A DNA stretch of 64,000 nt from Dictyostelium discoideum. Its lineage: Eukaryota. Within the stretch, counting starts at the first letter, position 1. Each line of letters begins with the position of its first letter. Positions 49,765-54,005 of this stretch are shown one piece after another. Position numbers and translations under genes: made by a program. The DNA lies in contig CM000153.2 of the NCBI GenBank assembly GCA_000004695.1, positions 3,360,001 through 3,424,000 on the forward strand. The letters are read 5' to 3'. Below the pieces are notes generated by a model. The model was not told where the DNA came from. It saw only the letters and a list, made by a program, of their open reading frames with translations, and made no database searches.

Positions 49765-52700
49765 AATGAAATCACTGAATTGTTTCAAATTATTTTTAAA
49801 AATAACCCCTACGGTTTTTATTATAACCATTTTGATCAAAATTTTTTTTTTTTTTTTTTTTTTTTTTCGAAGTAAAAAATAATAATAATACAACAGAATT
49901 GATTTAAAATAATCTCTTTTTAAATTTAAAATTTATCAAGATTTTTAATTCTACCACCCATTTGAATATCAACAGTGGAACCTTGAGGTCTTAATTCAAT
50001 GTTATTTGTATTTTTTTTTGAATTTCCATTCTTCTTCTTTTTAATTAAAACAATTGCAACAACAATAATTGCAATTAGTGCAAGACCACCTAGAATTGGG
50101 CCAATGATAACACCAATTTTTGTTTTCTTTTTATTTTCAGAACCACAATCATCGCCATCATAATCTTCAACACATTGACATTGACCAACTGTAGTATTAC
50201 ATAAACCACCATTTAAACATGAAACCGAACAACTAATACCACTACAATCTATACCTTCATAACCTTGAGTGCATGAACATTCACCAACTGTAGTATTACA
50301 TGAACCACCATTTAAACATTGTGGAACTGTACAATCCTTTGTACCACAATTATCACCATAAAAGTCATTTATACATTGACATTGACCAACTGTTGTATTA
50401 CATGAACCACCATTCAAACATGAAACCGAACAACTAATACCACTACAATCTATACCTTCATAACCTTGAGTGCATGAACATTCGCCAACCGTAGTATTAC
50501 ATGAACCACCATTTAAACATTGTGGAACTGTACAATCCTTTGTATCACAATTATCACCATAAAAGCCATTTATACATGAACATTCACCAACTGTAGTATT
50601 ACATGAACCACCATTTAAACATGAAACTGAACAACTAATACCACTGCAATCTACACCTTCATAACCTTGAGGACATGAACATTCACCAACCGTGGTATTA
50701 CATGAACCACCATTTAAACATGAAGCTGGACAACTAATACCACTGCAATCCGTACCTTCATAACCTTGAGCGCACGAACATTCACCAACCGTTGTATTAC
50801 ATGAACCACCATTTAAACATTGTGGAACTGTACAATGTTTTAATTCACAATAATCACCATAATGATCATTTATACATTGGCAACCAGTAAGTGGATTACA
50901 AGTACCACCATTTAAACATTTTGTATCACAATTTGCATTTGGTTGGCCAATGAATTTAATTGATCGTACTCGATTACCATATTTCATTAATATAGTTCTA
51001 TTAAATAGTTGAGGTGATAATGAAACTGTTATTTTTGGTAAAATATCATTTGCTATTGATTTACTCTCATCACCAAATAATATTAATTCAATTCTAACTC
51101 TTGTATTATTATTAAATGTTATTGAATATATTGAACTATTGAAACTAGGATCAATAATAAATTGATCTTCATTTGCTGGATTTTCAATTGTTAATGTAAC
51201 AATTCTAATTGCGCATTGTCCAACTTCTGAATTAATATTATTTTCAAATAATTTATAAATTGAGTTTGACATTGGATTTGGTTGAAATAATTTACCAATT
51301 ATTGAAATTGAACCAATTGAAGTTTGACCATATAGTGTATAAACACCTAAATTTGAACCTGTTGTTTTAGTAGATGCTGTCTGATATAATAGAATTATTT
51401 AAAAGTTAATAATAATAATAATAATAATAATAATAATAATAATAATAATAATAATAATAATAATAATAATAATAATAATAATAATAATAATAATAATAAT
51501 AATAATAATAATAATAATAATAATAATAATAATTGATTTAATATAATATTACTTACAATATCATGAATACCATCAGAGTTATAATCACCAATATCAATAG
51601 CCAACGCAGGGCCATTAATTGACATTATTGAACAATCACCAACTTGATCTTTTAAATAAATTGGATTTGAAGCATAATTTTTATTATTACCATACAAAAT
51701 GGTGAATGGGAGGTAAATGTTACCACTGAGTAAAAAATCTGCAAATCCATCATTATTTATATCCCCTAATCTAGGAGATAAAGCCCAAGGATCGGGGTTG
51801 CCAACAATTGTTATAACCAAACCATCCAATGGATTTAGATTTATACTTAATGTTGTTGTTGGTGGATATTCTGTTTTACCCCAAACCAAAAAAGCTATAA
51901 AGTCACCCGACTGAAGTTTTGTTTGAATCTAAAATAATTCAATAAAATGTAAAAATTAGTATAATAACAATAAAGAATAATAAATAATAAGAATAATCAA
52001 AAAATAATAAAGAATAAATTACACCAAAATCATTTAGTCCATCATTATTAAAATCTCCAAATGCATTTGGAAGATCATTAGAATTTATTGAGCAACCTAA
52101 AAAACTGAAACGGGTACCTTTGACACCATCATAAACTGGGATATATGGTGAGGTAAAAGGACCTCTACTACCATAAATAATATAGATTGCTAACTGATCT
52201 TTATTTATCATTATATCACCAATTCCATCATTATTCATATCACAAGGATAAGCAGAAAATGAATTGAAATTATTAATTAAAAAACCATTACTCCCATTTA
52301 ATGTTGAAGGGTCAAATTCAAATTGTGAATTAACTTGAAATTTACCACCGTTTATACCAAATATCATATATGAAACTGGTGTTCCTGTACTTCCAAAAGT
52401 TCCTATACTTGCAGAGACCTAAAAAAAAAAAAAAAAAAAAAAAAAATATGTATTAATACCATGTGAATACCCCTTTTAAAAACAAAATAAAAATAATAAA
52501 AATCTGTACCTACAAATAAATCTTTAATTGAGTCACCATTGAAATCAATGATTGATCTTATAAACCCAAATCCAATATTAGAAGACGCAACATGAGAAAT
52601 ATAAAAACCATTATTACCATTCACTGTCGAAAAAGTAGAAGGTGATATAATTTGATCAGTACCATAGATAACACAAAGTTTTCCTGGTGAAATCGTTAAA

Positions 52701-54005
52701 TAAAGAGCAATATCGTCAAATCCATCATTATTTATATCACCAACAGCTACTGGATATTTGCTTGCAGCAGTATTTAAAAAAATAAAACCATTTGAACCGT
52801 TGATCTTTGATATGTCTGTTTGAAAATCAAAATTACTTGCTAATGGCCCATAAAATACATATATTCCTCCTGAATGTATAGAATATATCAAATCATCATT
52901 ACCATCACCGTTCAAGTCTCCATGTTGAATTGATATTAAACTTCTGGCTTCTGATATTAAAAACCCATTTGTTGAATTAATTTGAGAAAATGATGTTGGA
53001 AAAATTGAAATTACAAAATTGAAATTATAATTTAAAATATAAAATAATAATAGAATATAAAAAAAGTTTACCTTATGTTTTTCTGTCATTTTTTGTTTAA
53101 AAGGAAACTTTTTTTCTGATTTTAAATTTTATCGAAATGTATTAAGTGCATTTTTTTTTTTTTTTTTTTAAAAAAAATAAGGTCTGTTTTTTTATTTTTT
53201 ACAAAAACGACGGTTTTTTTTTATTTTTTACACAAACGACGGTTTTTTTTTTTTTTTGTGACAAAGATATTTTTAAAAAATAAATATCTTTTATTTTGGT
53301 TGAATTTTAAAATAATCACATGATAATTTCTTTAAATTTTAATTTTTTTTTAAAAAAAAAAAAAAAAAAACAAAACTTTTATTTAAATAATCATTTTAAT
53401 TTTAAAACAAAAAAAAAAAAAATTAGAAAATAACTTTTGTAAATAAAAAATAATCTTTTTAATAAAATCAATCCAAAACATTATTTAAATTAAACCAAGA
53501 TAAAAAATTTTTAAAATAGATTTCTAATTTTCATAAAATAATATCCAACAATTTTTGACATTCGATCGTTTGCCAGATTTTCAAATGATATTTTTTTTTT
53601 TTTTTTTTTTTTTTTTTTTTTTTTTTTTTTTTTTTTTTGATTGTTTTATAAAAAATTGGAAAATATCTTTTTCCATAAAATTTGTTATTTGATTAAATAT
53701 AATTACAACTTTATTTATTTATTTACAAATTTTAATACCATATTTTTTATTTCTTTTTTTTTTTTTTTTTTTTTTTTTTTTTTTTTTTGTTTTTTTTTTT
53801 TTTTTGTTTTTGTTTACTTATTGCTATCACTTCTAGCTCTTAAAAGTCTAACGAAAATATTTAAAATATCTAAAAAGAGATCAATTGAAACTCTAATGTA
53901 ATCTGGTTTACCTTCTTGAAAAGTTTTGACAGCATTGTGAGTATCTAAAGCAGTTAAACCAGTGAATAAAGCAAGACCAAAATAGAGATCAAACTCTTGA
54001 GCGAA
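49765..54005. repeat. Right arm (intact copy) of the inverted segmental duplication
   Basis: See left arm 28560..31885. Confidence 0.8.
49926..53089 (-). CDS. Type I membrane protein with N-terminal integrin-alpha-like FG-GAP repeats (about 7), about 9 tenascin-type EGF repeats, a TM helix and a short cytoplasmic tail. 4 exons: about 53089..52514, 52418..52023, 51910..51557, 51380..49926
   Basis: Repeated DxNxDGxxD Ca-binding loops (DLNGDGNDDLIYS, GDINNDGFDDIAL, DMNNDGIGDIMIN, GDFNNDGLNDFGV, GDINNDGFADFLL, GDYNSDGIHDIV). CxxGxxGxxC EGF modules (CLNGGSCNTTVGECSC.QGYEG.DC). TM segment IGVIIGPILGGLALIAIIVVAIVLIKKKK. Donors GTAGGT, GTAATT, GTAAGT. An (AAT)n microsatellite lies in intron 3. Confidence 0.75.

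Follow-up and report, generated by a model that had tools for sequence, protein, structure and literature searches.

Gene DDB_G0285585 lies on the minus strand at 49926..53089 of the 64,000-nucleotide stretch of Dictyostelium discoideum DNA analysed here (contig CM000153.2, positions 3,360,001 to 3,424,000; "the window"). It probably encodes a type-I adhesion or recognition receptor, with an integrin-alpha-type head set on a non-integrin chassis, a role judged from the arrangement and conservation of its parts. As Pfam and motif matches, a profile search of the PDB and the homologues recovered all agree, the predicted head is an integrin-type FG-GAP propeller of bacterial flavour. The protein is an integrin-like relative and not a canonical integrin alpha subunit.

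The gene and its product

In the splice model, the complete gene runs from an ATG at 53089 to a stop codon at 49926-49928 in four exons (53089-52514, 52418-52023, 51928-51557 and 51380-49926, minus strand), with a coding sequence of 2799 nt and introns of 95, 94 and 176 nt, all of them GT..AG; the 176-nt third intron (51381..51556, minus) holds a long (AAT)n microsatellite. The spliced product of 932 amino acids (aa) is 100% identical, at equal length, to DDB_G0285585 of D. discoideum AX4 (P0001), and because this identity extends over the full length, the four exons are one gene. The coordinates given in the original prediction, made from the window alone, thus match the annotated coding sequence exactly, and its proviso that the exons might come from separate genes is disposed of. 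The gene is already annotated, as a "hypothetical protein" (in UniRef, as an EGF-like domain-containing protein), and it is built from known modules.

The first 30 aa (53000..53089, minus), MTEKHK and then a hydrophobic core, are taken to be a signal peptide on the strength of hydropathy and an AlphaFold2 helix at residues 3-20, rather than of a dedicated predictor. They are followed by the seven-bladed FG-GAP beta-propeller, aa 31 to about 500 (51225..52999, minus), with all three introns inside it, on which Pfam motifs, alignment, structure prediction, and fold and profile matches converge. In a Pfam scan read down to E<=1, this region matches FG-GAP_3 at 1.7e-16 and FG-GAP at 8.9e-12. It contains seven Ca2+-loop motifs, at D58, D118, D182, D252, D314, D380 and D439; six conform strictly to D.[ND].[DN]G..D, while the third reads DFNGDSIKD, with Ser replacing Gly, and all seven D-x-N-x-D-x-x-x-D motif columns are invariant in an alignment with 39 bacterial and metagenomic sequences. 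Blades 1-4 have a clear NGxNGF connector; in blades 5-7 it is degenerate. An AlphaFold2 model built from 48 aligned homologues has 28 strands between aa 31 and 465, making up seven four-stranded blades, with block means of the predicted local distance difference test (pLDDT) mostly about 75-94. The last 35 or so residues of the head look like a closing segment of the blade-connector kind, and aa 463-498 repeatedly match FG-GAP connectors. The seven DxNxDGxxD-containing FG-GAP-like repeats claimed at the outset are therefore present, with Pfam matches far above chance, and structure prediction gives the head the propeller form expected of it.

Between the head and the stalk lies a family-specific spacer of about 100 residues (aa ~501-598; 50931..51224, minus), beta-rich with one helix and without a Pfam family; it weakly matches generic beta-sandwiches, no integrin leg being among them. 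The stalk itself, aa 599-860 (50145..50930, minus), consists of eight contiguous six-cysteine EGF modules, delimited by a regular expression, sequons, Pfam and DNA repeats. Pfam assigns EGF_2 to eight stretches (1.2e-24) and EGF_TEN to the stalk at 2.1e-31, hEGF also matching, and an N-T-T sequon for N-glycosylation occurs in seven of the eight modules. Contiguous six-cysteine modules of about 28-33 residues are what characterizes a tenascin- or teneurin-type EGF array, so the tenascin type originally proposed is borne out; the number of modules, then put at about nine, comes to eight by the six-cysteine expression. The EGF-coding DNA (50142-50919) is itself made of nested tandem duplications at offsets of about 100, 200 and 300 nt, 77-88% identical, in agreement with the variation in EGF copy number within the family (3-10 modules) and with a 201-nt loss in the decayed twin described below.

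The single transmembrane helix and short cytoplasmic tail that had been predicted are both in place. The helix (aa ~870-895; 50040..50117, minus), recognized by hydropathy, conservation and an AlphaFold2 helix at 876-898, has two overlapping GxxxG motifs (GVIIGPILGG). The tail (aa 896-932, with the stop codon 49926..50039, minus), identified from sequence and conservation, has 37 residues and reads KKKKNGNSKKNTNNIELRPQGSTVDIQMGGRIKNLDKF, a poly-K stop-transfer segment and then ELRPQGST...LDKF; inspection of it found neither GFFKR nor NPxY. It is 100% identical in the D. discoideum copies P0003 and P0004 and 92% identical in P0002, and its motif is kept in D. purpureum.

Relatives of the head

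A profile hidden Markov model made from the family plus its bacterial homologues was searched against all PDB sequences. The best 60 of its 63 matches are all integrin alpha chains, aligned over the Ca2+-binding blades, led by alphaV (2e-16) and alpha4 (6e-14) and followed by alpha6, alpha5, alphaIIb and alphaL/X/M. By itself, the DDB_G0285585 protein matches integrin alphaV only marginally (16.6 bits, E 0.025). In a search of 5.8 billion proteins, on the other hand, every named match from outside Dictyostelium among the best 120 listed is bacterial, the unnamed ones being metagenomic or from unannotated assemblies. The non-dictyostelid matches listed have E values of 5e-52 to 7e-18 at about 25-36% identity; the best four bacterial matches score 131-196 bits and the others listed 83-130. 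They include RTX-linked proteins of Nostoc, T9SS-linked proteins of Bacteroidota, and proteins of Planctomycetota and Alphaproteobacteria. A scan of 185,579 prokaryotic species genomes gave 80 loci that span the whole propeller, at 24-35% identity and in many phyla.

Like these bacterial FG-GAP proteins, DDB_G0285585 repeats one regular unit seven times, a unit that includes a DxNxDGxxD loop and an LxxLNGxNGF inter-blade connector. One Ca2+ site per blade is the bacterial pattern, metazoan integrins having 3-4 (Chouhan et al., 2011, PMC3192720). The surroundings of the head set the two apart. In the bacterial proteins it is accompanied by RTX (HemolysinCabind), T9SS sorting, cadherin or HYR modules in a prokaryotic context, whereas no RTX, T9SS or cadherin-like module was matched by Pfam in DDB_G0285585, which lies on a D. 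discoideum chromosome with its three introns and has a eukaryotic signal peptide, an EGF stalk, a transmembrane helix and a cytoplasmic tail.

The best non-dictyostelid match, P0014, is a protein of 1093 aa with two FG-GAP propellers, a Ser/Pro-rich linker and a C-terminal transmembrane helix and tail. Its gene, at 1702-4983 of a 5.4-kb JGI metagenome contig (L001) of low GC content (31-38%), is flanked by IS110-family transposase genes, one complete and the other a fragment.

One explanation for such relationships is horizontal transfer: an ancestor of the species that have the family would have taken the head from bacteria and joined it to a resident EGF-transmembrane cassette, introns and host composition being gained later. 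This is a possibility with some weight, though on balance unlikely. The bacterial identity of the named matches, the prokaryotic loci that cover the whole propeller (one of them from a Holosporaceae bacterium), the low-GC, transposase-flanked setting of P0014, and the Ca2+ loops and LxxLNGxNGF connectors of bacterial pattern in all seven blades are each in line with it. Holosporaceae live inside protists. The narrow taxonomic range of the family fits as well: an exhaustive search found the spacer-bearing family only in a few Dictyostelium species, and no homologue from another dictyostelid or amoebozoan turned up in that search or among the best 120 matches listed.

Other observations argue against transfer. 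No close donor was found: the bacterial FG-GAP proteins are 37-49% identical to each other and at most about 35% to the Dictyostelium head, no donor clade stands out among the 80 loci, and P0014 shows no special affinity to the Holosporaceae locus. The bacterial repeats, being very regular, may also give the best scores with any regular FG-GAP propeller, and the head, with its three spliceosomal introns, is AT-rich like the host. Finally, the word-indexed search, which takes no more than 8000 candidates, could have missed amoebozoan relatives, and the amoebozoan "ITGA" sequences lay outside the comparison.

Two sequences considered as amoebozoan homologues were rejected: P0014, for its prokaryote-like contig with IS110 transposases, and P0058, which combines an FG-GAP ectodomain with a transmembrane helix and a kinase, for its tightly packed tandem genes next to pspC. 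The contig concerned (L002, 12 kb, Logan DRR350540) has at 779-12014 four tandem intron-less genes, 3-12 bp apart, that adjoin pspC; three encode an FG-GAP ectodomain, a transmembrane helix and a Ser/Thr-Tyr-like kinase, and the fourth a kinase with Sel1 repeats. This gene context looks prokaryotic. FG-GAP-plus-kinase proteins are among the amoebozoan "Type II ITGAs" of Kang et al. (bioRxiv 10.1101/2020.04.29.069435), and for some transcriptome-derived amoebozoan ITGAs an origin in bacteria or symbionts may be worth checking.

Comparison with other propeller proteins

The best Foldseek match to the model is CRTAC1 (9etn_A, 2.3e-10), at a sequence identity of about 10%; fungal and bacterial propeller lectins were also matched. 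CRTAC1/LOTUS shares with DDB_G0285585 an FG-GAP/VCBS-type propeller plus EGF, and has been described as having an integrin-alpha-like domain at its N-terminus and an EGF at its C-terminus (PMC8536980). These likenesses would suit a matrix or shed protein of the CRTAC1 kind, or a propeller lectin, with the ectodomain released to act in the slime sheath. Such a role seems improbable. CRTAC1 is secreted and has an UnbV_ASPIC domain and a single Ca-binding EGF, whereas DDB_G0285585 has a transmembrane helix, no ASPIC match in Pfam and no evident cleavage site; moreover, its transmembrane segment and tail are among its best-conserved parts.

LINKIN/ITFG1 and ITFG2 also have seven-bladed propellers of the FG-GAP type that are not integrins, as the DDB_G0285585 head does, and ITFG2, of the KICSTOR complex, is a high-ranking Foldseek match. 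LINKIN is described as a single-pass adhesion protein (PMC4275582). Its repeats are atypical and it has no EGF stalk, and ITFG2 is cytosolic, so neither resembles DDB_G0285585 as a whole; no sequence-level match to either was seen.

Comparison with integrins

A canonical integrin alpha subunit has a seven-bladed FG-GAP head, as DDB_G0285585 does, with Ca2+ loops only in the last three or four blades; here they are present in seven of seven. It is also an obligate partner of a beta subunit. The thigh, calf-1 and calf-2 legs (Integrin_alpha2 and relatives) gave no Pfam match at E<=1, and the membrane-proximal KxGFFKR is not in the tail. Only the propeller is shared, and for this reason, with the Ca2+ distribution, legs and GFFKR all failing to correspond, the protein is not placed among the canonical subunits. 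Metazoan alpha subunits (alphaV, alpha5, alphaIIb, alpha4, alpha6) have the legs and KxGFFKR where DDB_G0285585 has its eight EGFs and orphan spacer. An EGF stalk is typical of integrin beta subunits and tenascins, not of alpha subunits. The integrin-alpha-like ectodomain of the original prediction accordingly holds for the head, through the profile match to alphaV, and not for the remainder, where the stalk of EGFs stands in place of legs; of the profile families it looked to, FG-GAP and EGF were recovered and the integrin leg families were not at that threshold.

Dictyostelids have been held to lack such proteins altogether. A 113-taxon survey by Kang et al. reported no ITGA in Dictyostelium spp., an earlier screen of 47 unicellular eukaryote genomes found no seven-repeat integrin-type propeller (PMC3192720), and a 2022 review describes dictyostelids as having no integrin-alpha homologue and Dictyostelium as having no canonical beta integrins, only the Sib proteins (PMC9197732). 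Yet the criterion of Kang et al. for a non-metazoan ITGA, namely a membrane-docked protein with several FG-GAP blades and some cation motifs, describes DDB_G0285585. Under lax criteria of this kind, the published statement that Dictyostelium has no integrin-alpha homologue overlooks the DDB_G0285585 family; that Dictyostelium has no canonical integrins remains the conclusion. The amoebozoan Type II ITGAs share with DDB_G0285585 membrane or secretion targeting, cation motifs beyond the last blades and the lack of GFFKR, and paralogue 1 of Flabellula citata, assigned to that type by Kang et al., has an EGF-like domain C-terminal to the head, as here. This likeness is one of description, and the eight EGFs and Dictyostelium-specific spacer set DDB_G0285585 apart from it. 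FG-GAP repeats and a transmembrane helix do not by themselves define an integrin, and the family offers a test case of whether the "amoebozoan ITGAs" were inherited vertically or are bacterial-type propellers recruited into eukaryotic receptors.

The Sib adhesion receptors are type-I proteins with integrin-derived extracellular modules, a VWA head, glycine-rich transmembrane helices and talin-binding NPxY tails, and SadA, another adhesion receptor of Dictyostelium, has extracellular EGF repeats and nine transmembrane segments (PMC9197732). SibA-E and DDB_G0285585 both come from Dictyostelium; the head of the former is beta-like and the tail has NPxY, while the head of the latter is alpha-like and the tail has no NPxY. 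For the Sib receptors an alpha partner is not known (PMC9197732). One might be supplied by an integrin alpha orthologue proper, inherited vertically, that pairs with them through its propeller and GxxxG helix, and the homology of the head to integrin alpha propellers, the single-pass form with a short tail and GxxxG motifs, and the lax non-metazoan definition just given (bioRxiv 10.1101/2020.04.29.069435) would all be compatible with this. It is nevertheless very unlikely: besides the missing legs and GFFKR and the excess of Ca2+ sites, bacterial proteins score 83-196 bits against the 16.6 bits of alphaV, and the exhaustive search found the spacer-bearing family in only a few Dictyostelium species, whereas the Sib proteins are described throughout the Dictyostelia and not outside them.

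The family in Dictyostelium

Besides DDB_G0285585, D. discoideum has a second intact paralogue, DDB_G0271042 (999 aa), and DDB_G0285745, an AX4 model of 507 aa that is truncated at its N-terminus; in P0004, a related 912-aa model from a new assembly, blade 5 is short by about 20 residues. Orthologues whose parts follow one another in the same order are found in D. discoideum isolates, D. cf. discoideum, D. citrinum, D. dimigraforme and D. purpureum. The three closest D. discoideum copies are 86-88% identical to DDB_G0285585 in the propeller and 92-100% in the spacer, EGFs, transmembrane helix and tail. Among five D. discoideum-clade sequences, 130 of the 470 head positions differ. They cluster, in each blade, in one patch about 4-14 residues ahead of the Ca2+ loop and a second about 11-22 residues behind it, and only two of the 63 Ca2+-motif residues vary. 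The propeller would thus be a conserved, Ca2+-stabilised scaffold with a changing surface, and the family appears to be small and fast-evolving, with a head that diversifies rapidly.

Proposed function

The adhesion or recognition receptor favoured here would be a type-I glycoprotein of the cell surface, its glycosylated EGF array serving as a stiff stalk that keeps the Ca2+-stabilised propeller away from the membrane. The propeller would be the head that binds the ligand, perhaps a protein or glycan carried by other cells, by prey bacteria or by the matrix. The conserved glycine-rich transmembrane helix and the tail ending in LDKF could couple binding to sorting, signalling or the cortex, and could also allow lateral association.

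Several points count against this proposal. With two of the four D. discoideum family loci decayed or truncated, the family may be one that the cell can do without; a literature search with the four family gene identifiers retrieved no paper in the searchable literature; the variable patches were located along the sequence rather than on a face of the propeller; and AlphaFold2 confidence is low in the spacer (pLDDT 55-78) and the EGFs (below 55). That the genes form a dispensable, decaying family with no current function, as the pseudogene twin, the truncation of DDB_G0285745 and the shortened blade 5 of P0004 might suggest, is hardly credible for a gene with an intact 932-aa open reading frame (ORF) and canonical splice sites, an intact paralogue, orthologues in four to five species, and conserved Ca2+ motifs, cysteines, transmembrane helix and tail.

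A far-reaching and most improbable extension is that the propellers of DDB_G0285585 and DDB_G0271042 pair with the VWA heads of Sib proteins, through a propeller-VWA interface and GxxxG packing, as a functional analogue of the integrin heterodimer, put together from parts that were recruited independently. If true, Dictyostelium, said to lack integrins, would have an alpha-like partner for its beta-like Sib receptors. To the published view that dictyostelids have no integrin-alpha homologue, the DDB_G0285585 family is a clear exception where the head domain is concerned. It comes from the best-studied amoebozoan, one in which genes are routinely knocked out, and offers a candidate receptor at the cell surface that is tractable and whose head is diversifying rapidly.

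The decayed twin and the duplication

The pseudogenised twin that the original prediction placed about 20 kb away is real. Sequence comparison puts it, inverted, at 29341..31713 on the plus strand, separated from DDB_G0285585 by a gap of 18.2 kb, with the start codons 23.7 kb apart. Over aligned bases the two are 94.8% identical. The twin has at least five frame-disrupting deletions, with lesions that include a 7-nt deletion in exon 1, a 516-nt deletion across exon 1, intron 1 and exon 2 that removes aa ~91-231, 1-nt deletions in exons 2 and 3, and a 10-nt deletion in exon 4. A further, in-frame loss of 201 nt corresponds to two EGFs, and intron 3 is 54 nt shorter than in DDB_G0285585. The 380-aa AX4 model DDB_G0285565 is a partial model salvaged from this pseudogene.

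The full inverted segmental duplication, as delimited by self-blastn, extends over 28582..31880 (plus), with its partner arm at 54016-49767 (minus); the arms are 85-92% identical and reach about 750 bp past the 5' end of the gene and about 160 bp past its 3' end. The outer end (53616-54016 against 28582-28942) overlaps the 3' end of the neighbouring Bax-inhibitor-1 gene (ORF 53814-54983, minus), and the twin arm therefore holds a fragment of that neighbour's 3' region. Upstream of the twin is a short-chain dehydrogenase (SDR)-like ORF of 177 aa (28111-28644, plus), whose end coincides with the start of the duplicated segment. An 829-aa FG-GAP/EGF family model in the newer D. discoideum annotation (P0010), on the 5.58-Mb contig of this SDR ORF, also has SDR Pfam domains (adh_short) and is probably a gene-model artefact that fuses the ORF with the twin. 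Directly 3' of the twin (31850-33784), an element of about 200 nt is present in three copies of mixed orientation (31850-32018, 32583-32830 and 33556-33765), 86-92% identical, and may be a small repeat or transposon remnant at the duplication boundary.

Other features of the window

The DNA of the window is AT-rich, as is that of dictyostelids. A second D. discoideum assembly calls the same 932-aa protein for DDB_G0285585, and its neighbours there (the Bax-inhibitor-1 gene, a formin, a Nup84-family gene and a dienelactone hydrolase) offer no functional clue. ARAGORN detected one tRNA-like gene, at 6227-6310 (plus), anticodon undetermined, which could be an intron-bearing eukaryotic tRNA or a false positive. 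Two further repeat pairs are present: an inverted pair of about 800 nt at 13862-14651 and 16446-17241, 76% identical, and a direct pair of about 390 nt at 59376-59762 and 61129-61521, 92% identical.

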